DNA of 20,000 nucleotides from an uncultured virus (IMG/VR IMGVR_UViG_3300015608_001493). Its lineage: Duplodnaviria > Heunggongvirae > Uroviricota > Caudoviricetes. The notes beneath the pieces were generated by a model. It was not told the origin of the DNA and searched no databases. It worked only from the letters and a program-made list of their open reading frames with translations. This document shows positions 1-15,600 of this stretch, in pieces. Location of the stretch: the IMG/VR virus record IMGVR_UViG_3300015608_001493; one strand, given 5' to 3'. How positions within the stretch are numbered: position 1 is the first letter of the stretch; every line of letters starts with the position of its first letter. A program made the translations under genes and the position numbers.

Positions 1-197
1 TCCATAAACGACTCTAAACTTTCTAATGATGAAAGTTTATGAACAATAGATGTTTCTAACCAGTCTTCATCTTGGGTGGATGATGAAACAATCTTATCGT
101 TGAAGATGTCTTTGCCATCCTCGGAACGGTACTCAACCTCGATAGTAAGTAACCCGTTAAAAATATTTTTTGAAATTATACGTGCAGAATATTTCAT
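1..197 (-). CDS. Hypothetical phage protein, 5' part only (MKYSARIISKNIFNGLLTIEVEYRSEDGKDIFNDKIV...), runs off the window edge
   Basis: Translated by hand: ATG at 197-195, open for 65 codons to position 1. It has an A/T-rich leader and the same orientation as the operon. Not in the ORF track. Confidence 0.75.
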   Translation of the reverse strand, partial: MKYSARIISKNIFNGLLTIEVEYRSEDGKDIFNDKIVSSSTQDEDWLETSIVHKLSSLESLESFM

Positions 198-221: not shown

Positions 222-779
222 TTAATCACCTCCAAAGAGAATTGCGTTTGTTTGTGATCCACCTCCACCACCAGTAGTATAATCAACGGTTAGTGTTATT
301 AAATCTATGTTGCCTGTTGCTGGAAATTTTGCTCCAAAACAAGATATTGCAACTGCGATACCAAAGTTTGCATCATTAACATCAGTATGAGTAAGAGTTA
401 ACCCCCAGAGGTCAGAACTACCACCATAAGTAGCAACTGTCTCTGTTGTAGGCCAGTTTAATCCTGATTTTTTATCTGTTCCACTTACTACACCTCCTTT
501 TATTAATTTTATCAGACTGTCTTTTATGCTGGAACCTGCGTTACCTGTTTTTTTTCGTTCTATGGATGCAGTAATTCCATTTATAGTAGCACCAGAAGGG
601 ATAGAAAACCCAAAACCTGTTAGTAACATTTGATAACTTGCACCCCCCGGGCCTACCGCAGAATATCCATAGTTATCATCAGAACTAGATATGTTATTAA
701 TATTAGTCCATGTATAGGTGCCACCATTACTATTATTAGACGTATATGTGGAGAACGAATTTGGACCCTGTGATGCCAT
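222..779 (-). CDS. Small beta-rich virion protein, putative fibre tip/adhesin (185 aa)
   Basis: Ser/Thr/Gly/Asn-rich with a beta-strand pattern (GFGFSIPSGATINGITASIER...TYGGSSDLWG...NFGIAV). Ends in a Gly linker plus short tail (GGGGGSQTNAILFGGD). Lies directly downstream of the fibre cluster and has no signal peptide. Confidence 0.6.
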   Translation of the reverse strand: MASQGPNSFSTYTSNNSNGGTYTWTNINNISSSDDNYGYSAVGPGGASYQMLLTGFGFSIPSGATINGITASIERKKTGNAGSSIKDSLIKLIKGGVVSGTDKKSGLNWPTTETVATYGGSSDLWGLTLTHTDVNDANFGIAVAISCFGAKFPATGNIDLITLTVDYTTGGGGGSQTNAILFGGD

Positions 780-1300: not shown

Positions 1301-1326
1301 ATTTAGAAATTAGTAGATATTGTTCC
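794..1326 (-). mobile_element. HNH insertion bounded by a duplicated 3' end of the fibre gene (copies 521 bp apart)
   Basis: Perfect 12-bp direct repeat AGATATTGTTCC (+ strand) at 794-805 and 1315-1326, inside 35-bp copies that match at 27/35 positions. Confidence 0.75.
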
Positions 1327-1332
1327 AAAATA
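1298..1332 (-). repeat. Copy A of the duplicated gene end (encodes YFGTISTNF*, then AT-ATG)
   Basis: Minus strand TATTTTGGAACAATATCTACTAATTTCTAAATATG. Confidence 0.9.
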
Positions 1333-3195
1333 TGAAGTCCCATCATAAATAAATGTTACGATATCATATTTATTTGCAGTCGTAGTTAAAGTGGGGGTTG
1401 TACCCCCGGCCCATTTAATTGTAGGCCATGTTACAGTTCTTGAACCTGTGGCGTCTTGTTTAATAATGATAGAATATCTTGCTCCGCTCTTTGGGTTTGC
1501 AAATGTAAAAGTTCTGTTTCCACCAAGTGTTACAGTTTGTACGTTCCCGTTATTCCAATCAAGAGCAATTGTGGCTGCATCAGTAAGAGTATATAACGCA
1601 GACCAATACTGTCCCGTAGTTTTTGAGTTTCCGGTGATTTCCATCACCTCTGTTGCTGCTGTGGTTGAACCAAACGCGTTCTTACCAGCAAAAATATTTT
1701 TAGTTGATGTTCCAGATTGATAGACACCAAACGAAGAAGAGTTATTGTTTGAAATATCAATTGCTCTAAAAGTAGAACTATTAGCCAAAGACGTGATTGT
1801 TGGATTTATGTAAATCCCTCTTTGAACACCTGTTACAGTTGAAGTTAAGTTAAAAGTAGGAGCAATTTCAAACGCTATATAAGAACCACTACCAGATGCA
1901 GCAGTGTACGAATCCGTAACTTTAAGGTTTGTTTTACTTAGAGATGTACTTGTATAGGCTGTGTTTCCCAAGTTAATTGTTCCTGAGTTGTCCGAAGCAC
2001 TAATAGATATTGCTGTTGTAGATACGGCTGAGGAACTTATGTTAATTGATCCTGAACCGCCACCTACGGTTATTATGTTAGTATTACCACCTATTGTAAA
2101 CGTCACACCAGGAGTAATACCTGAGTTACCAAAAGTTGTAGTACCAGCCGTACCCATAGCAGATGCTATGGATAACGTAGGAGTAGTTGCACCAGTAAAC
2201 CTTGCTACTTCACTAAGTGATCCTGCGTTGTTTACTGCATAAACAACACCCGCACTTGTTCTTGAAGCATCGGTGGCATTCGAGTTAGTCCAAATACCTC
2301 CAAATGCAGCCTGCTCCCTATCTGCAACAGTCGCAGTTTCAGCAAGAAACTTAATACGACTACCAAACCCTAAGGTTGCAGTACCACTTGTGTTAGCACT
2401 GGTTGATATATTATCAACCGGGGTATTTGTTGATGCGGTATTGGTGTTATGATTAATAACACCTACGTTTCCTAATGTAAAATAAGTTACAGTATTTCTT
2501 TCAAACGCAAGGTCGTTATTATCGTTAGTCCCTATAATAACAGTTGCTCCTGTCGTATTACCCCCATTAGAAATATCTCCGCTTGCGGCAGAAGGAGTAA
2601 AATATTCTAAACTTGTGCCACCAGCATTAACTCTCAATTGTTGAAGAGAAGAGCCAAGCGCAGATAAACCAGTACCACCGTTTGCAACAGCAAGTGTTCC
2701 TGCAAGAGTGACTGCCCCGGTTGTACCTGTTGAAGGAGTTAACCCTGTTGTACCAGCACTAAATGATGTTACACCGGCGTTTGTAAGAGTTATTGTTCCA
2801 ACACCATTAGTTACAGTCATTCCTGTACCTTGTGTAATAGTTGCCAAAGTATAACCTGAACCATTACCTATTAACAATTGCCCGTTTGTAGGTGTCCCTG
2901 TAAGTCCTGTACCACCTTTACCAATAGCAATAGTTGTAGCATTCCATGTACCACTTGTAATACTACCTAAGGTGACAATATTTGTTGAGCCACTCCATGT
3001 AGAGAGCGCTGTATTTTCTACGTTGTTTAAACCTAAAAAGGTTTTAGTTGTAGAGGCATCTAAAATACTTACTGGACCTGAGCCAGAGGAACGCCCTAAG
3101 ATTCCAGAGGATGTTGTTAACTGATCAGGTGTAATATTCTGACCGATTACAAAACTTCCAAATAGAACAAAAGTGAATAAAAGAAGTATCCTCAT
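1303..3195 (-). CDS. Tail-fibre-like protein (630 aa) with N-terminal signal peptide and a common phage fibre C-terminal beta-sandwich
   Basis: MRILLLFTFVLFGSFVIG|Q start; LGLNNVENT phage-tail-repeat-like motif; GGTG fibre motifs (IAIGKGGTG, LAVANGGTG); C-terminal LTDAATIALDWNNGNVQTVTLGGNRT...KQDATGSRTVTWP..KWAGGTTPTLTT...DIVTF. Confidence 0.8.
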   Translation of the reverse strand: MRILLLFTFVLFGSFVIGQNITPDQLTTSSGILGRSSGSGPVSILDASTTKTFLGLNNVENTALSTWSGSTNIVTLGSITSGTWNATTIAIGKGGTGLTGTPTNGQLLIGNGSGYTLATITQGTGMTVTNGVGTITLTNAGVTSFSAGTTGLTPSTGTTGAVTLAGTLAVANGGTGLSALGSSLQQLRVNAGGTSLEYFTPSAASGDISNGGNTTGATVIIGTNDNNDLAFERNTVTYFTLGNVGVINHNTNTASTNTPVDNISTSANTSGTATLGFGSRIKFLAETATVADREQAAFGGIWTNSNATDASRTSAGVVYAVNNAGSLSEVARFTGATTPTLSIASAMGTAGTTTFGNSGITPGVTFTIGGNTNIITVGGGSGSINISSSAVSTTAISISASDNSGTINLGNTAYTSTSLSKTNLKVTDSYTAASGSGSYIAFEIAPTFNLTSTVTGVQRGIYINPTITSLANSSTFRAIDISNNNSSSFGVYQSGTSTKNIFAGKNAFGSTTAATEVMEITGNSKTTGQYWSALYTLTDAATIALDWNNGNVQTVTLGGNRTFTFANPKSGARYSIIIKQDATGSRTVTWPTIKWAGGTTPTLTTTANKYDIVTFIYDGTSYFGTISTNF

Positions 3196-3196
3196 T

Positions 3197-6100
3197 TTAT
3201 TGTCTAATTTTTATTGTAAATATATCAGTAGTTTTTGCTGTTACAGTAAGTGTAATTATGTCAGTACCCGCGTTATAAGACCAGTCTCGTGTTGTAGTAC
3301 CATCTGTATATGCTAAATAAACACCGTTTTTATAAAGTTCCACCTTCATTACATCAGTTGGAAGATCAAGGTTTGTTGTTGTACCTGTTCCTTTTGTTGC
3401 AGCAAGCGATCCTGTTGATAAGTTAATAGTGGTGGTGGAAATCCCTGTAACATAATACTCGTTAATACTTGTAAAAGTTGGGTTAGAATTGACCCAGTTT
3501 GTACCATTATAAGTAATAGTTTGGTTTGTTGCAGGAGAAGTAATTACAACGTCACTAAGATTGTCTAATGTAACAGTACCTAAATCAATACTGGGGTTTC
3601 CAGAAACCCCATCGCCATTACTAACAGTAATTTTTGAAGATGCTGCGGTAACAGAACGAGTTGTCCATGTGTCAGTTGCAGTTCTAACAGGAATCCCGTT
3701 AGAAGATAACCCTTCAATACCTGCAAGATCATTAGCAAGTGCAAACGTAGGGTTGCCAGATACACCGTTACCATTAGTTATAGTCAGACCAGCAGCAGGA
3801 CCAGTAAGGGTTCTAACTGCGGATGTTCCCGTACCTGTTATGGTGTAAATACCTTGTGAAGCCGTTGATGCCAAAGCATTAAGATCAGAATCAAATGTTA
3901 CATCTGTTCTACTACTTCCTGCATTATCAGAAGCCGTTGCAGAAGAACCTATAAAGTTTAATGTAGTTCTTTGAGTAAGGCTCGATCCTTCTTCTTGCAT
4001 AGTTGTATAACCCCCAGAAGCAGAAGGTGTTTGCCACGAAGGGGCACCTCCTGTGTTTGCACCTAAAAACTGGCCAGTTGTACCATTTGCAAGTCTTACT
4101 AACTCACCACCTGTACCTCTATAATAAAGATCATAGTTGGCATCAGAACCTATATCAAACCGTACTTTTCCAGATGTTGTAAATAAAGCGTAATGCGCAG
4201 CAGGTGAAGTAATTTCTAACCCTCTATAATCTGCTGCTGCGGTAATTGTAGGATTAATTTGAACTGCACGTACAATACCACTTGAGCCACCAGTCTGGTT
4301 AACTGTCATATTTCCAAAAGCAAGTCCTGTAAACGTTGCTGTACCACTTGTAGGGTTGAACGTGTTATCAAAAGACATTACTAACTTTGAACCAGAAGTA
4401 GGGTTTATATTGCTTGTACCTACTCTAACATAACCATTAGTAGCAGATGCGTTTAGCAATACGGAGCCTGCACTGTTTTGAGTAGATGTAAGTGACACTT
4501 GAACACTTGCGCCACCAACAGTAAACGCAGTGGCAGGAGTAATTGCGCTGTTTGTAATTGTGGCAGCAGAGGTTGAGCCTACTGTAATAGTTCCATCGTC
4601 AGCAACTTTGAATACTTCTGTACCAGAAGAGTTGCGAGTTACAAGACCCCAACTTGTATTTCCAGTACCAGTACCGTTGATAGTTACTCTACCGTTTGAA
4701 GCATATGTAGTTGAACCAACAGCCATCTGAGTACCAGACCACAATAATGTAGTAGAACCATCTTGGGATGATGCCCCAGACCAAACACTAATTTGATCAT
4801 CTACACCAGTGCCAGAAATACCTCCTGAACCAGCAGCCCATACTAAATTACCAGTACCATCTGTTTGAAGAAAATAACCAGAAGTACCATAAGATGAAGG
4901 TAAAGTATAACTAAAATTAGAAGTTAAAGTACCTGTTGCAGCAGTTTTAAACTCTACATAGTTAGTGTTATCAGAATCGTTAAACCTGAGTGCTTTGCCT
5001 CCGCGAGTTTCAAAACCAACAGAAGATACTTGACCAACTTCTACTGCGTTAATACCAAACTTGATTGGAGTTGTATTTCCTAAAACTTGAACAATCGCTG
5101 TACTTGGTTCACTCCAAGTTAAATCTCCAAGATATACATTAGAATAACCAAGAGTAGTTCCTACGGCACTTGGTCCTTGAAAACGCAAATGCACAGACTT
5201 AAACGTAGTTGAATAATCTGAGCCTTGCGCATCAAAAATTGCTTGATCTTCACCTGTTGTTGATGTACCTCTTGCATCCACATTTGCGCCAGAGGTACCA
5301 CCATAAATATAAAGACGTGTGTAAGAATCAATCCCTGTGTTTGTACCAATGGAGACAGTGTTAGTTGTTTCAAACACTTTTGAGTTAGTAAGTGTTGATG
5401 AAGCACTAAACTTAGGAAGATATCCTGTTGTACCTGAGCCACCTATTTTGTTATTAAATGTAGTCCAGTCAGTATTACTCAGTTTACCTGTGTTTGTTCC
5501 AGATGCGACAGGAAGGTTAAACGTGTGTGTACTTGTTGCGCTACTTATACCAAAATCGGTACCTGCTGTACCTGTGGCAAACGTTTGAGTAGATGCAGTA
5601 AGAGTATTCAAAGTAGTAATCCCTCCACCACCTCCGGGTGGAGAGGCCCATGTACCATCAGCCCTTAGAAAGTTAGTTGTACCACCACCAGAAGCAGGAA
5701 CTACACCTTGTAATGAAGATGTAAACAGATTCAACTCAGCAGTAAGTTGGGCTTGGGTTAAATCAGATACGTTACCTGTACTTCCTGTATTGTTACCTTT
5801 AAAAGTATGAGCCGCCATTGTTGCTAACTTAGCATTAGTGACTTTATTGTTACCAATTACGTTAGCGTTTGGTTCACCAGATACATCTCCTGCCAATACT
5901 GAATTTACTGCTTCACTAACAGGTCCAAAATAACTAAACTTTGCACCATTAGGAGCACCTGTTGCTGATGTACCATCACCATTACCTGATGTGTCACACA
6001 CTACACCAATCCAACCATTGATGGGAGTGGCGTAGTAAAAGATATCACCCTTTGCCCATCGACCTGTGTTAGGTTTGTTTTGAGCACTGAGTGAAGAAGA

Positions 6101-7909
6101 ACTTGTTTGATAATAAACAGCAGGGGTTTCAAGTCTAAGGTTTGTTACTGGACCTTTTAAACCACCAATAGAGTCATATCTTGACCAGTAAACAAGTTGA
6201 CCATCCCATACTTTGTTATCCCTCGTATAGTATCTAAGCATATTACTTGCTAATGGATGTCCTACTAAATAAGCCGTGTTATTATCTATACGGTTATTAT
6301 AAAGGTGCATTTCGTTGGTAATACTGGCTTTTGCGGCAGAACCTCGATAGTTAATAGCAGGACTGTTTGATGTTGCATAACTATGAATACAACCATCAAA
6401 GATAAACTTACCTGATCTCACACCAGCACTTCGAATAATATTCGTGGCATCTCCAAACCTACAATTTTTAAAATTAATTTCCCGAGTGTTTGTTCCAAAC
6501 CCGTTATCATCAGAATAAACATATGATAATGTTACAGAACTATGGCGTTTAAAATCACAGTTTTCAAAGAAGGCATAATCTGTTGGGTTTGCCGCAGCCT
6601 GATAGATTAAAAAATCTCCTGTAACTGTGTTAAATGCTGAGTCAGCATAAATTAATGAGTTACTAACTCTATATGAACCATAAGCCATTCGGAACGGCTC
6701 GTTAATATAAAACTGACAGTTTACAATGTTTGTTTCAAACTCTTGAATAACAGTTCGACCTTTCACATATACATTAGAAATGTTAGCATAACCTTTTCTA
6801 CCAGCAGCCCGCGCACCCAATAAGTTTAAATCAAGTTCAATTAAACTACAATTTGATAAGTTAAGGTTATATTTATAGACTGTGCTTGGACCATTGAAAC
6901 CATTAGGTTCAACTTCGATTATACCACGAACATTATTAATGTTCACACTATTAAAGTTTGTGGTAAAAGTTACCGTACTTCTAGTGTATAGACGCCCTTC
7001 TTCATATATATGAGAGATGTTTACATCACCTACACCTCCGGTTGATGCACTATTGATCCCTATTCCGTCTCCAAGTGGGTTGTAACTATAAATGTTTTCA
7101 ATGTTAATATTGGAAAAACCTAGTTGACCAGATGGAAAAATATAAAGAGAATGGTAGTGTTGCCAAGCAGTAGCACTATCAGGAGAACCTTGATTTTGAG
7201 CGTTTCCATCAAACGCTATATCAGAAATACTAAAATAATCTCCACCACTCCCATCAACTCTAAGAAGTCTGGTTAACACTCCACCAGGGTTAGATGTACT
7301 AAGAGCAGTGTTGTTTTTTCGCTTAATAATAGAAAGTTGACCATCCCCAGTAATCCGAACTCTACTAAAAGAGTCTAAGGTCACCGTTGCATCTACCAAA
7401 TAAGTACCTTTTGATATATATCCGTGAGCGTTGTTGTTAGCAACAAAATTGGCCCAGGCTTGCATAGCAGCATCATCATCAGTAACTCCATCACCTGTTG
7501 CTCCCCACCATTTAACATCAAGTCTTTCATCCTCAGTTAGACGATGCCATTTATTGATACTTGGAGTACCTTGAAAAATAGTACCACCGTTAGGAGAACC
7601 GGTTTGTCTAAGAATAAACACGCCTCCTCGGTTAGCATCCCTCCAAATTAATATCTTCTGACGAAGGGTGTTTGGATAATTAGCAAACTCACTTACGTTG
7701 TCTATCACAACAACTGCAAGTGAGTCTTTAAGAGCGTTACTAAAATCTGAATAGGCTATACTAGATGGTTTCCATTCAGTACCAGTCCATTTAAGATACT
7801 GGTTTGCTGTGGCTCCATCCTGATTAAGAATCCAGTTAAAGTTACTATTTACCTGAGAATAACCGATAGTCCCAAGTAATATAAAAAATGCTGTTATTAG
7901 TTTTTTCAT
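3197..7909 (-). CDS. Tailspike/fibre hybrid (about 1570 aa) with signal peptide, pectate-lyase-like right-handed beta-helix and long fibre region; start revised from 7945 to ATG 7909
   Basis: ATG at 7909 follows the upstream TAA by 1 nt and gives MKKLITAFFILLGTIGYS|Q. LDVKWWGATGDGVTDDDAAMQA...KGTYLV is the Pectate_lyase_3-type start of a beta-helix. Asn/Ile-rich coils follow, then PNTGRWAKGDIFY...GWIGVVC, then Gly/Thr/Ser fibre repeats. Confidence 0.85.
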   Translation of the reverse strand: MKKLITAFFILLGTIGYSQVNSNFNWILNQDGATANQYLKWTGTEWKPSSIAYSDFSNALKDSLAVVVIDNVSEFANYPNTLRQKILIWRDANRGGVFILRQTGSPNGGTIFQGTPSINKWHRLTEDERLDVKWWGATGDGVTDDDAAMQAWANFVANNNAHGYISKGTYLVDATVTLDSFSRVRITGDGQLSIIKRKNNTALSTSNPGGVLTRLLRVDGSGGDYFSISDIAFDGNAQNQGSPDSATAWQHYHSLYIFPSGQLGFSNINIENIYSYNPLGDGIGINSASTGGVGDVNISHIYEEGRLYTRSTVTFTTNFNSVNINNVRGIIEVEPNGFNGPSTVYKYNLNLSNCSLIELDLNLLGARAAGRKGYANISNVYVKGRTVIQEFETNIVNCQFYINEPFRMAYGSYRVSNSLIYADSAFNTVTGDFLIYQAAANPTDYAFFENCDFKRHSSVTLSYVYSDDNGFGTNTREINFKNCRFGDATNIIRSAGVRSGKFIFDGCIHSYATSNSPAINYRGSAAKASITNEMHLYNNRIDNNTAYLVGHPLASNMLRYYTRDNKVWDGQLVYWSRYDSIGGLKGPVTNLRLETPAVYYQTSSSSLSAQNKPNTGRWAKGDIFYYATPINGWIGVVCDTSGNGDGTSATGAPNGAKFSYFGPVSEAVNSVLAGDVSGEPNANVIGNNKVTNAKLATMAAHTFKGNNTGSTGNVSDLTQAQLTAELNLFTSSLQGVVPASGGGTTNFLRADGTWASPPGGGGGITTLNTLTASTQTFATGTAGTDFGISSATSTHTFNLPVASGTNTGKLSNTDWTTFNNKIGGSGTTGYLPKFSASSTLTNSKVFETTNTVSIGTNTGIDSYTRLYIYGGTSGANVDARGTSTTGEDQAIFDAQGSDYSTTFKSVHLRFQGPSAVGTTLGYSNVYLGDLTWSEPSTAIVQVLGNTTPIKFGINAVEVGQVSSVGFETRGGKALRFNDSDNTNYVEFKTAATGTLTSNFSYTLPSSYGTSGYFLQTDGTGNLVWAAGSGGISGTGVDDQISVWSGASSQDGSTTLLWSGTQMAVGSTTYASNGRVTINGTGTGNTSWGLVTRNSSGTEVFKVADDGTITVGSTSAATITNSAITPATAFTVGGASVQVSLTSTQNSAGSVLLNASATNGYVRVGTSNINPTSGSKLVMSFDNTFNPTSGTATFTGLAFGNMTVNQTGGSSGIVRAVQINPTITAAADYRGLEITSPAAHYALFTTSGKVRFDIGSDANYDLYYRGTGGELVRLANGTTGQFLGANTGGAPSWQTPSASGGYTTMQEEGSSLTQRTTLNFIGSSATASDNAGSSRTDVTFDSDLNALASTASQGIYTITGTGTSAVRTLTGPAAGLTITNGNGVSGNPTFALANDLAGIEGLSSNGIPVRTATDTWTTRSVTAASSKITVSNGDGVSGNPSIDLGTVTLDNLSDVVITSPATNQTITYNGTNWVNSNPTFTSINEYYVTGISTTTINLSTGSLAATKGTGTTTNLDLPTDVMKVELYKNGVYLAYTDGTTTRDWSYNAGTDIITLTVTAKTTDIFTIKIRQ
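3581..3892 (-). repeat. Two tandem 52-aa fibre repeats inside the 1570-aa protein
   Basis: DSDLNALASTASQGIYTITGTGTSAVRTLTGPAAGLTITNGNGVSGNPTFAL aligns without gaps to ANDLAGIEGLSSNGIPVRTATDTWTTRSVTAASSKITVSNGDGVSGNPSIDL. Confidence 0.85.
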
Positions 7910-7910
7910 A

Positions 7911-9974
7911 TTATTCCCAACGTTGCCAATTAATTGTTGTTCCACCAGTAATTCTTGCTTGTAATACTACGTGACCATTCTGAGGCACATCTGTAATCTG
8001 AGAACCACCATTAATGTTTTGGTTTGCTCCGTTTGCAAGAATATCAATCGCGTTTGAGTTTACATTAAATATAAATAACCATTCTCCATCTGATACGTTT
8101 CCATCCGCAGGAAGAGTTACTGTTGAACCTGCTGATGCCACATTAAGATATACATAAGAGTTAGTACCATTTAATGTCGATGCGTTTGTAGTAATTGTGG
8201 TATATGTACCAATTTCATTCGTAGTGGTTACGGCCAAACTATAAGTGTTGGTTCCAGTAAACGTTTGGTTTGCATTCAGTAACGCAATGTTTGAACTGTT
8301 GGATAAGTCCGTAGAAGCAATTGTTGACCAAGATGCGGTAGTACCATTGGATTTCAAAAAAGTATTGTTTGCACCAATATTAAGTTTGTTCCAGGTATTA
8401 CCTGCGGCACCTACTAACAAATCGCCTGTTGCGGTGGTTCCTGTTCCAGTACCACCTCTTGTTGCAGCAAGTGTACCTGTCCAACCCAATGTCATACTAA
8501 AAGAATTAAGAACAGAGTTTGTAGGGCTACCACCAAGAGTAAGAGTTACATTTGTATCATCAGACTTAGTAACAGAACCAGCAGTGTTATATGAAGGTGC
8601 GGCACTTGATCCTGTGTTGTTACCAAACCAAGTATTTGCACTAGCGTTACTCAAAGTAAAACTAAGTGCGGGGGTAGTTGTGGCAGTGGCTACCGAAGTG
8701 GTAAACAATGGAGACAGGTTGCCAGAAGAGAAATTAGTAACCGTACCAGGAGTAATCCATGTTATACCACCCGTTGCTTTACTTGGAACCTGACCGTTTG
8801 ACGCAGCAGAGTAACCTCTAATACCTAACGGGTTAGCAGTTACACCCCATCCAATTAATGAAGAGTCTCGAACTACAACCTGAGAACCCCAGTTATCTGC
8901 GCCTGAACCAGGGTTTTGCCAACTTGGTAAACCACTGTTTAACGTAAGAACTTGACCGTTTATCCCAACTCCTAATCGAGCAATATTACCAGAAGAGTTT
9001 CTATAAAATAAATCACCTGTTGCATCAGAACCTAAGTTTAATCGCATACCACCTGAAACAGTAAGAATGTTGGAACCATTAGGTGTTGCGCCAATACCTA
9101 CCTGTCCATTAAAAAAGTTATCTGCCCCAGAATTGGATTGATAAATACCATAACCACTGGCATTATCAATTTGAATTGATCGCCAATCAGCAGCACTTGT
9201 TAAAGTAGGATTCAAACGAACACCATAAGAAATACCTGTGTGTTCACCAGTTTGGTTAATTGTTGGAGCAACCTCAACTCCTGTGAAAGTGTTTGTTCCT
9301 GATGCAGTTGGAGCAAAACCTGTTATGATTCTTCCTGTTATAACATTCTGAGTTGTTGATGTTTTACTTCCACCATCAAAAGTTACCACTGGAACAGAAG
9401 CAATACTTGCGCCATTTGTTAAAGTAATACCACCAGACGCATTTGTAATATTTATCCCAGAGGCCCCGGCACTATTAGCCTGTATTTCCAAAGAGGTTGC
9501 CCCCACTACAAACCCTGAACTCAACTGTAATGCGTTAGCGCCAGAAGAGTTAAACAGTCTTAATACCCCAGAGTCTGTTAAATCTGTCTTTTTTACACCA
9601 TCACTTGAATAGTGTGTAAAGGCAAAGGTAGTTAATGTAGTACCTGTACCAAATAAGGTTAATCGAGACGCAGGTTGTGAAAACGATCTACCGATAGAAA
9701 GTCTTTTTGATGAATCAAATACATATGAAGTATCGCCGCTAATAGTTGTGGCATTTGTAAAAAACGCAACTTGTCTTGCGGTACCAGACGCGTTTGTAAT
9801 AACACCAAGTGTTGAAAGTGGAACAGGCTTCCAAGCAGATCCATCCCATCGCAACACATCGTTAGTTATAGCACCATCTTGGTTAAGAATCCATTGGAAG
9901 TTTCCATTCGCCTGCGAAAAGAGTTTAACCACAGACAACAGTGTGATAAAAAGAGTTAATTTAATTTTATTCAT
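7911..9974 (-). CDS. Tail-fibre-like protein (687 aa) with signal peptide
   Basis: MNKIKLTLFITLLSVVKLFS|Q start; T/G/S-rich; ANQTFTGTNT and LAATRGGTG fibre motifs; C-terminal VTLP...DG.. beta-sandwich paralogous to that of 9967-11874. Confidence 0.8.
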   Translation of the reverse strand: MNKIKLTLFITLLSVVKLFSQANGNFQWILNQDGAITNDVLRWDGSAWKPVPLSTLGVITNASGTARQVAFFTNATTISGDTSYVFDSSKRLSIGRSFSQPASRLTLFGTGTTLTTFAFTHYSSDGVKKTDLTDSGVLRLFNSSGANALQLSSGFVVGATSLEIQANSAGASGINITNASGGITLTNGASIASVPVVTFDGGSKTSTTQNVITGRIITGFAPTASGTNTFTGVEVAPTINQTGEHTGISYGVRLNPTLTSAADWRSIQIDNASGYGIYQSNSGADNFFNGQVGIGATPNGSNILTVSGGMRLNLGSDATGDLFYRNSSGNIARLGVGINGQVLTLNSGLPSWQNPGSGADNWGSQVVVRDSSLIGWGVTANPLGIRGYSAASNGQVPSKATGGITWITPGTVTNFSSGNLSPLFTTSVATATTTPALSFTLSNASANTWFGNNTGSSAAPSYNTAGSVTKSDDTNVTLTLGGSPTNSVLNSFSMTLGWTGTLAATRGGTGTGTTATGDLLVGAAGNTWNKLNIGANNTFLKSNGTTASWSTIASTDLSNSSNIALLNANQTFTGTNTYSLAVTTTNEIGTYTTITTNASTLNGTNSYVYLNVASAGSTVTLPADGNVSDGEWLFIFNVNSNAIDILANGANQNINGGSQITDVPQNGHVVLQARITGGTTINWQRWE

Positions 9975-11874
9975 GTCTTTGCCAGTTTATTGTAATACCT
10001 GAGATTCTTGCGTGTAATGTAATATGACCATCCTTAGGAATATCTAACACGGAAAGTCCACCATTAATATTTTGATTTGTTCCATTTCGATTAACATCTA
10101 ATGGAGTGTTATTCAAGTTGTAAATTATAAAATAGTCTCCATCAGCAACGTTTGCATCCAAAGGTAGTGTAACTGATGCTCCACCTGTACTAATATTACA
10201 GTAAACTACTGTAAAGTTCCCAGATAAAGTGGACCCATTTGTAGTCACTGTTTCATAGTTCACCCTTTGTTTGTTGGATTGAACCGTACCTAAAACACTA
10301 AGTGTGTTTATACCACTTACATAAGTAAGGTTTGCGTAACTACCTAATGTGTTAGTACCAGTAAACACAGGTACTCTGGTAGTTGCTCCACTAATAGTTG
10401 TGGTTACAGGATCAATCCAAGTAATTCCTGCTGTGGATTTACTTGGTACCTGACCATTGGAGGCTCCTGAATAGTTTCTGATTCCTAACTCACTGCCCAT
10501 GACACCTGTACCTTGTAACGAAGTATCTCTTTTTACAACCTGTGTTCCCCAGTTATCACCTGAGCCTCCACCAACATCGTTTGCTGGTGCCCATTGAGAA
10601 CCGTTCCATTTAAGAACTTGACCACTTGTAGCACCGATTTGTTCTAACTGATTTGGGTTAATCTTAGTTGTATCAATATAGTTTACTATATATTCTTTAT
10701 CTACCAAAGAACGATTGTCATAAGACGAGTGTAGTTTACTCGTATATTTAATCAATTTAGTAGAACTCGTTTTACTATCACTAATGGTAATTGTGTTTGT
10801 TACAATCCCTCCTGTACTTACTTGAAATCGAATTGTCTCAGGTCTGGTAACAATGTTTGTATAACTAAAACCGTTTGTAGTACCAAGATAAGCACTTGTA
10901 TCAGAAGGACTAATAATAAGTGCTCCACCTTGACTTGGATAACCCGATGTTAATATTCCACCTACCTGAGTGCTATCAGTGTAACCTCCGATAAGAAAAG
11001 ATCCGTTTCTATTATACATAGTTACAGTTCCTTTACCAGAGGAGTAAGATACGTTTGTTCTATTATCCGTAATTGTAGGAACAGTGTAAAGGTTTGATTT
11101 AATACCTAAAAACAAGGAGTCTACTGTTCTAGTGACTCCTTGTTTTGCTATAACGTTTGATCCACCTACTACTGCACCGGGGGTCCATGTTGAACCATTC
11201 CATACTAACGCTTGCCCTGACGTAGCACCCATTTGATTAATGTCTGTTCCACGTAAACCACCAGGTCTAACATGAGTAGAATCAATAACATCAGGTGCCT
11301 GTAACCTATTAATTGTCCACATCATTGTGTCGGCCCCAACCCTTAACCAATTATTAGAATAAATAAACGCTCCGCCATCATAAGAACCAATATCAAGTTT
11401 ACCTACTTGTGATGATCCTACTGAATCTATGAATGTCATTTTTGCTCCAAAAGGATCACCTGATTGCATTTTATTCTGAATCATTATGTAAGGTGCTCCT
11501 GTCAAGTCATCCAAAGACCGTTCCCCTTTAAGAATTAAAGTTCGGTTTTGTGCAAAATTTAAATACCGATTAGAATAAATAAACGATTGATTCGCGTTAT
11601 CTCCACCTAAAAGAATAGAGTCGTTCTTAACTAAGATGCCTTGTTTACCAATATACCAAAGTTTCTCCTCAACCCATTGAGTACCATCCCAGTAATAGTA
11701 TTTTCCGGTTTGATGCACATATGCTCGTCTTGATGCGTTCTTATCAGTGTTGCTGACGGTTGTTGCAGTTAAGTTTGAATATGTAGCAAACCGCCTAAAA
11801 CCAAAAGCCCCTTCGCTTTGAGAATAAAGAAACACAGTCAAAAGTATAAATCCGAATGTTAATAACAGTCTCAT
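9967..11874 (-). CDS. Tail-fibre-like protein (635 aa) with signal peptide
   Basis: MRLLLTFGFILLTVFLYS|Q start; two GATSGQ.L.WNGS.W.P repeats; GDNWGTQVV module; C-terminal domain ending INWQRHE. Overlaps the next gene by 8 bp. Confidence 0.8.
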   Translation of the reverse strand: MRLLLTFGFILLTVFLYSQSEGAFGFRRFATYSNLTATTVSNTDKNASRRAYVHQTGKYYYWDGTQWVEEKLWYIGKQGILVKNDSILLGGDNANQSFIYSNRYLNFAQNRTLILKGERSLDDLTGAPYIMIQNKMQSGDPFGAKMTFIDSVGSSQVGKLDIGSYDGGAFIYSNNWLRVGADTMMWTINRLQAPDVIDSTHVRPGGLRGTDINQMGATSGQALVWNGSTWTPGAVVGGSNVIAKQGVTRTVDSLFLGIKSNLYTVPTITDNRTNVSYSSGKGTVTMYNRNGSFLIGGYTDSTQVGGILTSGYPSQGGALIISPSDTSAYLGTTNGFSYTNIVTRPETIRFQVSTGGIVTNTITISDSKTSSTKLIKYTSKLHSSYDNRSLVDKEYIVNYIDTTKINPNQLEQIGATSGQVLKWNGSQWAPANDVGGGSGDNWGTQVVKRDTSLQGTGVMGSELGIRNYSGASNGQVPSKSTAGITWIDPVTTTISGATTRVPVFTGTNTLGSYANLTYVSGINTLSVLGTVQSNKQRVNYETVTTNGSTLSGNFTVVYCNISTGGASVTLPLDANVADGDYFIIYNLNNTPLDVNRNGTNQNINGGLSVLDIPKDGHITLHARISGITINWQRHE

Positions 11875-12302
11875 GCTTTACGCCTTTTAATTACTCCTTC
11901 GGACATACCATAAGGGTTATTAGATGTTAGTTCGTAAAGACCATTTAAAGGTACTCCCCCCATACCTGCGGTGGTATCATCATCAAATGACCCGTAAATA
12001 ATAATGGAGTTACCACCTATATAGTTAATATAGGTAATGAGGTTTTCGATTAACTGTTGAAGAGTTCCATCTGTATAGGTTGTATCTCCAATAGTATAAT
12101 CGCCCTCAATAATAATATTCTCTAAGTTAATAGTGACCCCACCATCAATATTTAGAGAATATATACAACAGTCTTCTGTGTTTACCAGACCCTTCTTTAA
12201 AAGGAAACTACCTATAAGATCATCTAACTTGGGTCCATAATATCTTCTGCCCGGTTTGATTTCCTCAAGTAAGCCTGGTTTAAATACATAACTAGGCAGC
12301 AT
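11871..12302 (-). CDS. Small putative virion protein (143 aa) with DCC-type N-terminal domain and fibre-like C-terminal motif
   Basis: ATGA overlap with the downstream gene. N-terminus is paralogous to 12309-12590. C-terminal FDDDTTAGMGGVPLNGLY resembles a motif recurrent at phage fibre ends. Confidence 0.65.
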   Translation of the reverse strand: MLPSYVFKPGLLEEIKPGRRYYGPKLDDLIGSFLLKKGLVNTEDCCIYSLNIDGGVTINLENIIIEGDYTIGDTTYTDGTLQQLIENLITYINYIGGNSIIIYGSFDDDTTAGMGGVPLNGLYELTSNNPYGMSEGVIKRRKA

Positions 12303-12308
12303 TACTTA

Positions 12309-12590
12309 TTAGGGTACAGCAGTAATATCTACGGTGAATAAGTTACCCTCTCCACTTTTCCAGTACATTACTTCTGCTACTGCAAAAAGAGAGTTGTTAG
12401 GAATTGTTGGATCAGTTTCATCCGTAACAATAGGGAGAGACGGAAACATTTTGCAACAATCATCTGTGCGAGTTGCCATTTGCATATCAAGCAAAGAATC
12501 TTCGGTTACTCGTCTAAGGTCCAGACCCTTTTGTTTTTTACCTGGAAACATCTTTTCAAAATAACCCATTTTAATTAACCATCTAGTCAT
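12309..12590 (-). CDS. Small putative virion protein (93 aa) with DCC-type N-terminal domain
   Basis: Same strand and packing as neighbours; shares the K.G..E...PG++..G..L......LL.....T.DCC pattern with the next gene. Confidence 0.7.
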   Translation of the reverse strand: MTRWLIKMGYFEKMFPGKKQKGLDLRRVTEDSLLDMQMATRTDDCCKMFPSLPIVTDETDPTIPNNSLFAVAEVMYWKSGEGNLFTVDITAVP

Positions 12591-12672
12591 AATCGTATGT
12601 CTGTTTAAAAGTTTAGATAATATAGTAATTTCTGTTTAATCTTCCTAACCTTAGGTTTAATAATAAACATTA
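12591..12672 (-). promoter_or_regulatory. Candidate regulatory or promoter interval between the giant gene and the fibre operon
   Basis: The only gap over 25 bp in the window. Holds a 9-bp direct repeat TCTGTTTAA (12600-12608, 12631-12639) flanking TACTATATTA (minus strand), and a short inverted repeat CCTAA-CC-TTAGG (12644-12655). Confidence 0.35.
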
Positions 12673-15600
12673 TTATCGTTTAATCATAGCAATAAACGAT
12701 TGTATTCTACCCTCAGGGTTTTCAGTTGCATAAAGCCAGTTATCATACTGGATAAATTTTGTAAAATAGTGTTCCAGTTTTGAATCACCTTTTTCAATAT
12801 TGAACTGAGGTATATTCTTTTGGTAGTATGCGTTTTCTTTACCAAGAACTAATCCATATGTAGCATCTATCATTTTACTTAAATCCTCAGCCGCAGCAAA
12901 ACCTGTGGTAGGGTTTTTAACCAAGCGAAGGGTTTCGGTGAATACTGGTGGAATAACCTGAGACTCTACGTTAAAAAATGGCATCATTGATAATGTTTCT
13001 GTTTCACTCTTTGCTTGAAGCACCATTAATAACGCAAGGTTTTCTGCATAACTATTGTCTTTAAGTTTTTTAAACTTATCAGGGTCATCCGCGTCAAACC
13101 CAAACACTAATGAGATTAATATGGAAGAACCTATAACAAAAACAATCTCGTTGAGGGTTGTCATATAGTTTCTCTTTTCTTCCTCAGTATAAGTGTTCCA
13201 GTATAACTTTCCATGTTGAACAAAATCTTTTAACATTTGGTAAGATAGTCTACCAAACGTTCTCCAATAACCTTCAATTTCTTCACCTACCATATAGTTG
13301 GGTCGAGATTTATCAAACCTTCTCCGAAGCATTGGGATCATCCAATTCTTAAAATAAAGAAGAGTCTGACCAATCGTATATGTAGATAGTAAAGTTTTAC
13401 TATCCACCTTACCTTGTGTATATTCAAGAACAGTATGATAACCTAATTTAAGGTTCATCATATAGTCCATATCAATAGGTTTTCCTGTACGATAGTCTAC
13501 AAACCCCGGTTTAATAGATAGTTTACTATCTTTCTTTTCTAATATTTCGTAAAGAGTTTTAACCTCTCCGTTTTCTCCTTTTACTTTTTTATGATAAAGA
13601 TGTCCATAAAGAAGGTTTGCTGAAATAGAAAACTCCATCCCTTCATTAAAGAGATAAATATGTCGTTCTTGTAAAAGTCTTTTTGAACCACCTTTAAGAA
13701 TCAATTCTCCCAGTTTTAAATGATGTGGGTTAAAAAAGGTAAGAATGTAATAATCAAGACTTCTGTCTTTTGGGTCTCTCTCAATCTCTGACATAAACTT
13801 AAAGAAGTTAGTTCCCAAGTTTAGAGAGGCTTTTCTCATTGACGAAGGTGAAGACCAGTTTGCAAACTGGTTTCCTATGATATTTTGAAGCCTACCCTGT
13901 AAGTTGTTCTTTAAAGTATTTGCAAAACCAAAAGGAAGACCTAAGGTTCCTATTGTGTTAAGTTTACGAACTCTTGTTAATGTTTGATCAATTTGTTTTC
14001 CATATTTACCAAGTTCGTATTGTTTGTTCATTCCGTAAACATGGTGATCTAAATAAAACCTGAATGCTTTGTAGCGATTTTTATTAGTGTCCACAGGTCT
14101 ACCTCTTTGATCTAACTGTAAAGAAGTAGATTGTAAACTATCCTCAATAAGTCTGAAAAGTTTAGACTCTTTTAGCATCCTTTGGGATTTTGCTGTACTT
14201 CCAGCAAACATTATCGTGGTTAAGAGAATATCTTTGGACACTCTTTCTGGCTCCATATAATGTGAATAGGGTACAGCAATTCTTGTATACCGTGCAACAT
14301 TATCAGTGGAGTTTTCAGAAGGCTCTTCCTTTCCTGTAACCCCATTAAGCCAACTGATAAAACGCTGTTTTAAACTTTTCTTTTCACCCTCAGTCTCAGA
14401 GTAGTTTCCTTCACCTTCTTCAAATCGGTTCTCTTTTTGAATAAAGTTTTGAAACATGTTTTTAAAATATTCTCCTGTTTCTAAATCTCGCTTTGCCACA
14501 GAAGGTAACCCAAAACCTATTTTAGCCTCTCTCGGGGTGTAGGGATCGGATTGGGTTTCAAGATGGTATTCAGTAATTTCTTTGAGGATTTGTTTTAACC
14601 CTTCGTTAGAACCTTGCATTAATTTCAGATAAGCCTGATTAAAGTAGGTCTGGCTTTTTGGAAGCCATTTTTTATTAATCGGATTCCATGTTACCCAATC
14701 AACTTTTTCAGTTTTAAACTCTGGTTTCACCTGACGAATAGAATATTGCATGGATGGAACCATCAGAATATTTTTACTTTCAATAGGTTCTATCTTCATC
14801 CATATATAAGTAGGACTCCAATTAAAAACTTCGTTACCATCAACTATTGAAGATTTTAAAAAGTGGTTATCCTTAAACCACTTTGTAAACTCGTCGTTTT
14901 CATTTTCAACAAACGATCTAAACTCTAGTGTATTTATGACAGCGTTTAAGTTAGAGTTCTCTTCAATTTGCAACCCCGGGTATTTAGAATTAAACTTTTC
15001 AAGAAACCCACTCTCTCTTGCGATTGTTACGAACTGTTCGTTATAAGCATCGGTAGTAGATTTAGACTGAATTGATTGTAATTTTTTAATTAACTCGGTT
15101 AGAGTTTTCTTTTTCTCTTTAATTTCTATCGAGTAGACTCCTTTTGCCTCTTCTCTTGCTGCTCGTTTTGCATCTTCAATCTTTTGCTCATAACTTAGAA
15201 CTTTCTTCTGAATTTCAGGAGTGCTTACTGAACCATCTAATATGTTATCTTCGTCCCGTAAGGGAGAAGCCAGGTTCATTAAGGATTCCCATTCTTCTTT
15301 AAGGTCAAGTGTTGTGACACCTTGTAACTCGTTAATCTCGTTAGTGAGTTGGCTTATTCCTTCTGAAAGTTGTGCTCTTTCATCATACCACTCTTGGGTA
15401 AACCTGGTCACAGTGTTATCGTTTAACCAATCTAATATCTCAAATGGTGCGTTCTCCTTAGCATATTGGTAAAGTTCTGAGAATGATTCTTTGTTTACCA
15501 AAGACATAAGAGTTTGATATACATCTTCCTCTATGTCCATTGTGTTTAAAAGAATTGTAAACTCTGTTCTGAACTTTTGATAATTAGGTTGGTATTCATA

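Follow-up and report, generated by a model that had tools for sequence, protein, structure and literature searches.

Four consecutive tail-fibre-like genes (g635, g687, g1570 and g630) in a 20,000-nucleotide (nt) stretch of DNA from an uncultured virus (IMG/VR record IMGVR_UViG_3300015608_001493) each begin with a predicted Sec/signal peptidase I (SPase I)-type leader that is followed directly by a glutamine. This stretch, referred to here as the window, represents part of a genome of about 142 kb, and all ten of its genes lie on the minus strand. On balance we lean towards the view that the four products are true virion fibres that would be exported by Sec, cleaved, and joined to phage particles around the time of lysis.

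Translation gives the N-termini MRLLLTFGFILLTVFLYS for g635, MNKIKLTLFITLLSVVKLFS for g687, MKKLITAFFILLGTIGYS for g1570 and MRILLLFTFVLFGSFVIG for g630, in every case with Gln as the next residue. Leaders were scored using a home-made rule (not SignalP) that demands a net positive charge before an uncharged stretch of 9-18 residues with a mean Kyte-Doolittle hydropathy (KD) of at least 1.8, and small residues at -3 and -1 after this core. The rule flags exactly these four of the ten window proteins, with n-regions MR, MNKIK, MKK and MR, cores of 11-16 residues (mean KD 1.87-2.61) and a small-x-small/Gln site that predicts cleavage before Q19, Q21, Q19 and Q19; it is negative for the giant protein, g93, g143, the 172-residue HNH endonuclease (HNH172), g185 and g65. 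Applied to the complete genome of a relative (G002), the same rule flags 11 of 163 open reading frames (ORFs), a background rate at which four consecutive hits would arise with a probability of about 2e-5 by simple arithmetic, so that the run in the window is far beyond chance. No Cys occurs within the first 26 residues of any of the four fibres, which are accordingly not of the signal peptidase II type. NCBIfam (E <=0.1) gave no match to any model for the four proteins, and neither it nor Pfam (E <=0.01) showed a type IX secretion system (T9SS) C-terminal sorting domain; the C-terminal domain of g630 is also found in phages of non-Bacteroidota hosts. Nor did any of the four match the S74 chaperone (PF13884) in Pfam at E <=0.01. 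A preceding sequence-only reading of this DNA had proposed the same N-termini and cleavage points, with which translations and rule agree, had described the flanking small genes and a 185-residue protein as leaderless, as the rule also finds, and had seen no lipobox, T9SS domain or S74 chaperone, for which sequence, NCBIfam and Pfam scans were likewise empty.

Neither g1570 nor g630 contains an in-frame ATG, GTG or TTG in codons 2-50, so that a leaderless isoform arising by that route is impossible for these two proteins; g635 and g687 have TTG/GTG codons within or after the core, whose usage as starts cannot be judged. At the level of sequence the four N-termini are thus confirmed to have the features of Sec/SPase I-type leaders that follow the Bacteroidota Q-rule, by which SPase I cleavage leaves an N-terminal Gln (as set out in the consulted parts of PMC5837995 and PMC10653852), and from them we infer that the four fibres are exported and cleaved.

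The four proteins are fibre-like and, as judged by sequence comparison, related to annotated tail fibres, constituting a set of mosaic paralogues that share modules. The N-terminal 50 amino acids (aa) of g1570 are 52% identical to those of g687, and the C-terminal 130 aa of g635 are 46% identical to those of g687; a leaderless 3512-aa fibre of another complete relative (G001) also shares modules with g630 (35% over 330 aa), g687 (74% over 93 aa) and g1570 (42% over 153 aa). g630 matches PHROG 31660 'tail fiber protein' (1.9e-8) together with PHROG 5596 and PHROG 19976, and has 20168 relatives at E <=1e-3 among cluster representatives. Its last 90 aa, a widespread tip domain, match proteins in 10 records of phages whose hosts belong to several phyla; these proteins are annotated either as 'minor tail protein' or 'putative tail fiber' or as hypothetical. 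An AF2 monomer model of g630, computed from a 30-row alignment, is beta-rich with a mean predicted local distance difference test (pLDDT) score of 66; it is confident only over residues ~220-630, with the C-terminal beta domain at about 90 and the leader unstructured (pLDDT <50). Foldseek returned for this model one match at E <=0.001, the Pseudomonas phage Pa223 capsid spike (template-modelling score 0.14-0.26), and otherwise weak matches to tailspikes, Bdellovibrio MAT fibres and T4/T5 fibre parts, so that the model is consistent with a fibre fold whilst not being decisive. Parts of g1570 recur as short modules in structural or tail-fibre proteins from 93 phage records; the protein also has a weak DUF5907 match, and a motif spotted by eye suggests a depolymerase-like region at ~130-560; a sequence search of the PDB with g1570 and g630 returned nothing. 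g687 contains a fibre repeat of ~100 aa, the part that it has in common with the 3512-aa fibre of G001, which is conserved over 63 aligned homologues (alignment A1), and has 602 homologues at E <=1e-3. The weakest fibre case is g635, for which there was one weak PHROG match (9627, function unassigned) and no match to phage records.

Orthologue comparisons suggest that the leaders are functionally conserved while their sequences drift, and that they look selected. g635 and its orthologue P0122 (69% identity) agree at 8 of 18 leader positions, at 48 of the next 60 and at 429 of 613 over the whole mature protein, and the corresponding figures for g687 and its orthologue P0002 are 7/20, 36/59 (next 60 aa) and 452/663; P0122 and P0002, the closest orthologues, both lie on one 81-kb contig and retain the n-h-c layout and the Gln. 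Among pairs that keep the leader, orthologue identity is 61-69%. The earlier proposal that the four leaders differ and yet are selected is borne out in so far as orthologues keep signal-peptide features, and the homologue survey that it recommended finds leaders often present: leader-like N-termini occur in 99 of 120 g635 homologues (96 with Gln at +1), in 55 of 120 g687 homologues under a strict rule (51 with Gln) or 64 of 120 under a looser one (55 with Gln), and in 36 of 149 g630 cluster representatives (32 with Gln). The Gln at +1 precedes whatever sequence comes next, which fits the Q-rule and not a conserved mature motif. Many relatives of g630 start with MAxTKIKLxQLxQDGA, and the leader-bearing ones consist of the leader and then the same motif; similarly the near-orthologues P0098 (with leader) and P0104 (without) align from the first mature residues and differ there only. 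Since leaderless relatives open with the post-cleavage motif, the leader is best described as an addition to a fibre N-terminus that is ordinary in other respects.

A scan of one genome per prokaryote species (GTDB) with the fibre-repeat alignment yielded 77 loci, for which phylum was assigned by hand from record titles and 11 ORFs that were truncated or had no ATG were left unscored. Leader-like N-termini were found in 31 of 41 scorable Bacteroidota ORFs with the repeat (28 with Gln), against 8 of 28 scorable ORFs from other phyla (four with Gln), indicating, on sequence criteria, that leader-bearing fibre-like proteins are concentrated mainly in Bacteroidota.

Gene spacing and relatives place the four genes in a phage. 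The junctions from g143 to g185 measure, in order, -4, -8, +1, +1, +2 and +2 nt, and the four fibre genes and the giant gene therefore form one tightly packed operon; no terminator-like site was found at any gene boundary in the window, and a sigma-70-type promoter scan gave 36 sites against 38.7 expected, although such a scan is uninformative for Bacteroidota promoters. The N-terminus of the giant protein resembles the Pfam ART-PolyVal domain (E 3.7e-5; 25 bits, below the 31.2-bit cut-off), and over its C-terminal third the protein shares 20-24% identity with proteins of crAss-like phages that carry the annotation 'putative RNA-polymerase subunit'; the gene concerned in cr128_1 adjoins an annotated RNA polymerase gene. 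The protein also has a region like the 1745-aa protein of contig L001 (E 2e-10). Its family comprises 49 proteins, whose largest contigs stop at 128-145 kb (143,590, 137,153, 142,093, 137,648, 128,103, 140,450 and 144,783 bp), a ceiling that suggests a discrete phage lineage with genomes of ~140 kb; the exact g635 sequence is recorded on a contig of 142,337 bp. The family alignment (A2) retrieved six IMG/VR and 17 metagenome loci, and single-protein pattern scans of IMG/VR and JGI metagenomes with the giant protein alone retrieved nothing. Two relatives are scored 100% complete in IMG/VR (CheckV), namely G001 (142,038 bp) and G002 (131,429 bp, with terminal repeats), and G002 encodes a terminase (TerL, PHROG 6681, 1.2e-64), a portal (PHROG 6547, 4.3e-43), tail and virion structural proteins, and a homologue of the giant gene. 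The window thus appears to derive from a tailed phage with crAss-like/Pachyviridae-like architecture, the terminase and portal being known from G002 and not from the window. Scans of the window with Pfam, PHROG and NCBIfam found no housekeeping gene, and near-identical DNA was not present in the phage collection. Window DNA does recur near-identically in wastewater/activated-sludge runs (eight studies, dated 2016-2024): positions 3000-12900 have a share of 0.8-1.0 in such runs from three studies and are partially present in runs from five more, with marine runs at 0.29-0.40, the partial shares not being interpreted; RNA runs contain a share of 0.07-0.08 of the window's sampled words.

Whether leader-bearing fibres reach the virion can be approached through other phages. 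In the siphophage-type IMG/VR contig L008 the tape-measure gene is followed by a leaderless 1240-aa protein that corresponds to the leaderless 820-aa protein of contig L007 (39% over 754 positions) joined to part of L007's 734-aa protein; that part is the C-terminal half of the latter, leader-bearing protein (41% over 353 positions, E 4e-60). This split and fusion implies that what is a tail-tip module in one phage forms part of a leader-bearing protein in its relative. Two proteins of G002, of 2447 aa and at least 289 aa, are the only large ones in that genome to have leaders; they stand at the end of its structural operon, with lysis-like genes as neighbours. The 289-aa protein has PHROG tail-fibre-assembly and minor-tail matches, and the large leaderless proteins scanned in this genome include none with a tail-fibre PHROG. 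The cultured Cellulophaga phage phi18:3 (KC821620) has three consecutive products, gp085, gp086 and gp087, that begin with MKNKITIIMILMSISFGYS, MKKTIYILSILLLTISGVSA and MKHTFSIVLFFILSIGLNA, respectively, each followed by Gln; GenBank labels all three 'structural protein; experimental MS/MS proteomics' (MS/MS, tandem mass spectrometry). Their PHROG matches are of virion-structural, tail-protein, tail-fibre and pectate-lyase types, and membrane proteins and an endolysin come next. The other MS/MS structural proteins of phi18:3 have no leaders and none has a tail-fibre PHROG; in G002, L007 and phi18:3 alike, the leaderless proteins yielded neither a tail-fibre match nor such an annotation. Leader plus Gln is also found in phi10:1 (KC821618) gp093-094 and phi19:1 (KC821607) gp102-103, again MS/MS structural proteins in GenBank, as well as in phi13:2 gp086-087 and Ingeline_1 genes 32-34, and the leader and N-terminal module of phi18:3 gp087 recur in 24 Cellulophaga phage records, four of them examined. 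The terminases of phi18:3 and G002 both belong to PHROG 6681, and their portals to PHROG 6547. Taken together, the split and fusion, gene position, operon structure and MS/MS annotation in cultured phages indicate that leader-bearing fibres are probably virion parts.

In the mechanism that we favour, the four genes would encode late-operon tail fibres or tailspikes, with a receptor-binding role, of a tailed phage of ~130-145 kb infecting a Bacteroidota host in wastewater or activated sludge, each fibre being made as a preprotein with a host-type Sec/SPase I leader ending in small-x-small/Gln. Late in infection Sec would carry the fibres over the inner membrane; SPase I would cut before the Gln, which host glutaminyl cyclase would convert to pyroglutamate; the fibres would fold and trimerise in the periplasm; and they would dock on otherwise complete, leaderless tails once holin and endolysin merge the compartments. 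Tailspikes of P22 can be added to heads in vitro. Of the fates suggested by the sequence-only reading, it is folding outside the cytoplasm and joining virions at lysis that gains most, both from the Cellulophaga MS/MS annotation and from positions matching those of leaderless fibres in two phage groups, with export still a prediction; roles as decoys, superinfection blockers or agents of surface remodelling are neither supported nor excluded, and that interpretation is, overall, partly supported.

Textbook tailed-phage assembly is wholly cytoplasmic, and a number of observations weigh against the proposed mechanism. We know of no tailed phage described as making a part of its virion beyond the cytoplasm, and an attachment step that follows lysis should carry a cost in efficiency. 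The case for export and cleavage is built on the home-made rule together with the Q-rule, and co-purification in MS/MS experiments proves neither attachment nor cleavage; moreover, the window fibres have no similarity to phi18:3 gp085-087 (BLASTP, E <=0.01). Only four of 44 scorable IMG/VR ORFs matching the window fibres have leaders, and leaders are not found on the structural, fibre or post-tape-measure proteins of three cultured phages, namely crAss001 gp22-26, the structural proteins of phi14:2 and phi12:1 gp58-61. In most relatives the giant gene is followed by small genes and by genes for lysis in place of fibres, and with an HNH gene as neighbour the fibre block could be an accessory insertion. 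The main fibre of G001 is leaderless and located elsewhere in its genome, and as only 20 of ~142 kb have been seen, leaderless fibres may likewise exist elsewhere in the present phage. In the myophage contig L002, a leaderless tail fibre is followed by three leader-bearing genes in the usual place for accessory genes.

Several of these points would be expected if the four proteins were instead exported fibre paralogues outside the virion, serving in receptor masking or destruction, superinfection exclusion, capsule stripping, as decoys or in decoration of cells or vesicles, whilst the particle used other, leaderless fibres. The missing block at this site in most relatives and the flanking HNH gene, the leaderless main fibre of G001 and the gene order of L002 all suit such a role, as do, in the consulted parts of these papers, the Q-rule proteins of Porphyromonas gingivalis phages that are thought to alter the host surface (PMC10367356) and the leader-bearing fibre proteins that Bdellovibrio shows on its own surface (PMC10769870). 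It would, however, have to accommodate gene spacing that leaves no room for a promoter or terminator and implies co-transcription with a virion cargo gene, mature N-termini that retain the motif opening leaderless fibres, three phages (G002, L007 and phi18:3) that yielded no leaderless tail-fibre match or annotation, and analogous Cellulophaga proteins annotated as MS/MS 'structural proteins'; we consider it unlikely, if the most serious of the alternatives. Rather less probable is an uncleaved hydrophobic N-terminus, acting as a signal-anchor that tethers the fibres to the inner membrane up to the time of assembly or as a buried structural plug of the tail. A leader-like N-terminus alone cannot separate cleaved from uncleaved forms, the core of g687 is short (11 residues) and followed by Lys, and the AF2 model is uninformative on this segment; but all four proteins carry small -3/-1 residues with Gln at +1, and the recurrence of this Gln before unrelated sequences is easier to reconcile with SPase I and the Q-rule than with a structural role. 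Signal-anchor-release (SAR) domains are Gly/Ala-rich, and the strongly hydrophobic cores seen here (mean KD 1.9-2.6) are unlike them.

The leaders might also be recombination baggage from cellular, secreted Bacteroidota fibre-like genes, with little or no function in the phage. Leader-bearing cellular proteins that share modules with the window fibres are indeed abundant, with Chryseobacterium copies in ordinary chromosomal context; many of the leader-like g635 homologues lie on large chromosomal contigs and are annotated 'tail fiber domain-containing protein' with PF13884, and the fibre genes are mosaic. An export signal that served no purpose should, however, be lost quickly from an essential part made in the cytoplasm, whereas four different leaders on four genes are kept at the orthologue identities given above despite drift, and leaders in this arrangement are seen again in contigs of the sipho-, myo- and podo-type as well as in cultured phages from three families or more, so that we regard this origin as improbable. 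That the window might be bacterial chromosome or a non-phage mobile element, with the four proteins as cell-surface adhesins, seems to us very improbable indeed. Cellular leader-bearing fibre-like proteins do exist, and polyvalent ART proteins occur on conjugative elements too; against this, relatives of the giant gene lie in 100%-complete IMG/VR genomes with terminase, portal and tail proteins, contigs of the giant family stop at 128-145 kb, and the window contains no housekeeping gene. A non-phage interpretation is thus largely refuted by the complete viral relatives and the contig ceiling, and the worry that the contig might prove to be ordinary chromosome does not apply, given relatives that are complete phage genomes with terminase and portal.

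Export of virion fibres need not be confined to one lineage. With considerable reserve, and at somewhat less than even confidence, we suggest that a sizeable number of Bacteroidota tailed phages of sipho-, myo- and podo-type, Cellulophaga phages included, may divide the making of their host-recognition apparatus between two compartments. The cytoplasm would be the site of head and tail assembly, whilst Sec would export the fibres, the tailspikes and small baseplate-distal proteins, which would then be cleaved, receive a pyroglutamate cap and fold in the periplasm; fitting to particles would take place only at lysis, and the exported pool might also act on the envelope of the dying cell. Were this so, tailed phages would have a second assembly topology, in which morphogenesis has a periplasmic branch and fibre attachment must be timed with lysis; SecYEG, SPase I and glutaminyl cyclase would be phage dependency factors and possible routes to resistance; and such genes would be mislabelled by annotation pipelines in which a signal peptide counts against a structural role. 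The question is directly testable, since Cellulophaga phages that show this feature are in culture and mass spectrometry data for virions already exist. A full-text literature search found no description of signal peptides on Bacteroidota phage tail fibres, nor of a periplasmic step in tailed-phage assembly. Leader-bearing tail fibres are, apparently, widespread in Bacteroidota phages, present in culturable ones, and undescribed in print. The premise that exported fibres are unheard of must nevertheless be toned down, as cellular leader-bearing fibre-like proteins are common in Bacteroidota and an analogue has been studied in Bdellovibrio (PMC10769870, consulted in part).

The genes of the window are collected in the table below. 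Its G+C content is 27.5-41.6% per kb.

Genes of the 20,000-nt window in operon order, with predicted leaders and supporting observations
Gene or product	Coordinates	Strand	Remarks
Giant protein, at least 2441 aa, 5' end beyond window	12673..19998	-	Polyvalent, virion-cargo type; first operon gene seen; no leader
g93, small leaderless protein	12309..12590	-	Homologous to the 123-aa protein of G002 (E 1e-5)
g143, small leaderless protein	11871..12302	-	Overlaps start of g635 by 4 nt
g635, fibre-like	9967..11874	-	Leader codons 1-18 = 11821-11874; predicted cleavage LYS/Q19
g687, fibre-like	7911..9974	-	Leader codons 1-20 = 9915-9974; predicted cleavage LFS/Q21
g1570, long, fibre/tailspike-like	3197..7909	-	Leader codons 1-18 = 7856-7909; predicted cleavage GYS/Q19
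g630, tail-fibre protein	1303..3195	-	Leader codons 1-18 = 3142-3195; predicted cleavage VIG/Q19
HNH endonuclease, 172 aa	782..1300	-	No leader; Pfam HNH E 2.4e-5, exceeds its cut-off
g185	222..779	-	No leader; no Pfam, PHROG or NCBIfam match
g65, small, frame runs past low end of window	3..197	-	No leader; from open reading frame list

The start of g1570 is taken as the ATG at 7909, the listed frame extending to an upstream GTG at 7945. The HNH endonuclease has 15 PHROG matches, mostly to HNH endonuclease families (best 4.9e-17); its gene comes directly after the fibre block, which is missing at this site in most relatives, and the block may have arrived, or may move, as a cassette. Counterparts of g93, 106-109 aa in length, are found after the giant gene in loci including L161, L162, L164-L169 and L178-L181. 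This g93-like family always lies directly after the giant gene, the G002 versions being 123 and 561 aa (L187, 8220-10286), and has an N-terminal motif of the type KxPGLDLxRA that is shared, by eye, by the N-terminus of g143; the latter has no Pfam, PHROG or NCBIfam match and is probably a member. Both g93 and g143 might be considered candidate docking, adaptor or helper proteins between tail and fibres, and g143 also a candidate chaperone.

The Bacteroidota O-glycosylation sequon D-(S/T)-(A/I/L/M/T/V) occurs seven times in g635, the sole window fibre in which it is enriched (2.6 expected), four times in g1570 (7.1 expected) and not at all in g687 and g630. For protein sets drawn from the window, G001, G002, L007, L008 and phi18:3, totals were 28 against 48.7 expected from shuffles in 15 leader-bearing proteins and 65 against 75.7 in 12 leaderless ones; the leaderless 3512-aa fibre of G001 is equally depleted, so that no conclusion is drawn, and depletion may be a property of fibre sequences.

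Three further features of related or comparable contigs were recorded. The long leaderless fibres of L001 (6938-16590) open with a Cys-rich N-terminal domain (CxxC...NxDCVxYxG), which stands alone, at 174-306 aa, in G001 (L185, 5591-7925) and G002 (45416-46557); it may be the virion-anchoring fibre part in this lineage. The early region of G002 (71647-87105, plus strand) encodes nine small leader-like proteins of 78-157 aa, of which at least two have, by eye, a lipoprotein-like Cys just past the core, and these are possible surface-modifying or exclusion genes. In the IMG/VR contigs L003 (5394-15926) and L004, both of 36-40 kb, nine leader-plus-Gln genes occupy ~10 kb with few leaderless small ORFs between them; their products are of 116-692 aa, one matches PHROG 3677 'protease' and there are almost no other PHROG matches, and about one quarter of the genome would be devoted to exported proteins.

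Among known systems, the fibres of crAss001 (gp22-26) and phi14:2 resemble those of the window in being late-operon proteins, multiple per phage, with repeat modules common to annotated fibres, and crAss001 gp22-26 adjoin lysis genes; unlike the window fibres they have no leaders, and their folding and attachment are assumed to be cytoplasmic. In the consulted part of a survey of diversity-generating retroelements (PMC6199706), the phage target proteins are also without signal peptides. Phages of P. gingivalis have five Q-rule genes for which a role in altering the host's outer membrane has been proposed (Matrishin et al. 2023, PMC10367356, seen in part): like the window proteins, their products are predicted SPase I substrates exposing Gln, from which the authors infer adaptation to host secretion, but the text consulted does not describe them as tail fibres or as components of the virion.

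Cellular 'tail fiber domain-containing proteins' of Saprospiraceae, Cyclobacteriaceae, Chryseobacterium and other Bacteroidota likewise have a leader and Gln, followed by repeats common to g635 and g687, but in the loci inspected they lie in chromosomal, non-phage context and many carry PF13884; g635 homologues with the S74 domain occur on contigs of up to 1.47 Mb. The MAT fibres of Bdellovibrio bacteriovorus are, according to the consulted part of their description (Caulton et al. 2024, PMC10769870), trimeric, mosaic, phage-fibre-like proteins with a signal peptide that are displayed on the cell surface, all with a conserved domain of ~130 aa after the signal peptide and 13 of 21 ending in an S74 chaperone. 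As far as that description goes, they share with the window fibres a mosaic, phage-fibre-like build, an N-terminal signal peptide and a diderm host, but are cellular and serve prey recognition, whereas the window fibres have no S74 match and lie in a phage structural operon. Foldseek matches the g630 model, weakly, to Bd2133, Bd2439, Bd3182 and Bd1334 (E 0.05-0.11). The MAT fibres, on what was seen of that account, show that Sec export of such fibres is feasible; by analogy they may keep open a surface or secreted role, and an exchange of fibre genes with their leaders between phage and host.

The Cellulophaga phages (phi18:3, phi10:1, phi19:1, phi13:2 and Ingeline_1) differ from the window phage in their marine Flavobacteriia hosts, in their genomes of 42-76 kb and in the lack of sequence similarity to the window fibres. 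Their records do not mention signal peptides, and a text search counts the term zero times in the isolation paper of phages Ingeline and Nekkels. Like the window, nevertheless, they carry consecutive leader-plus-Gln genes of fibre, tail-protein and pectate-lyase type beside lysis genes, and seven of their leader-bearing proteins bear the GenBank note of MS/MS proteomics.

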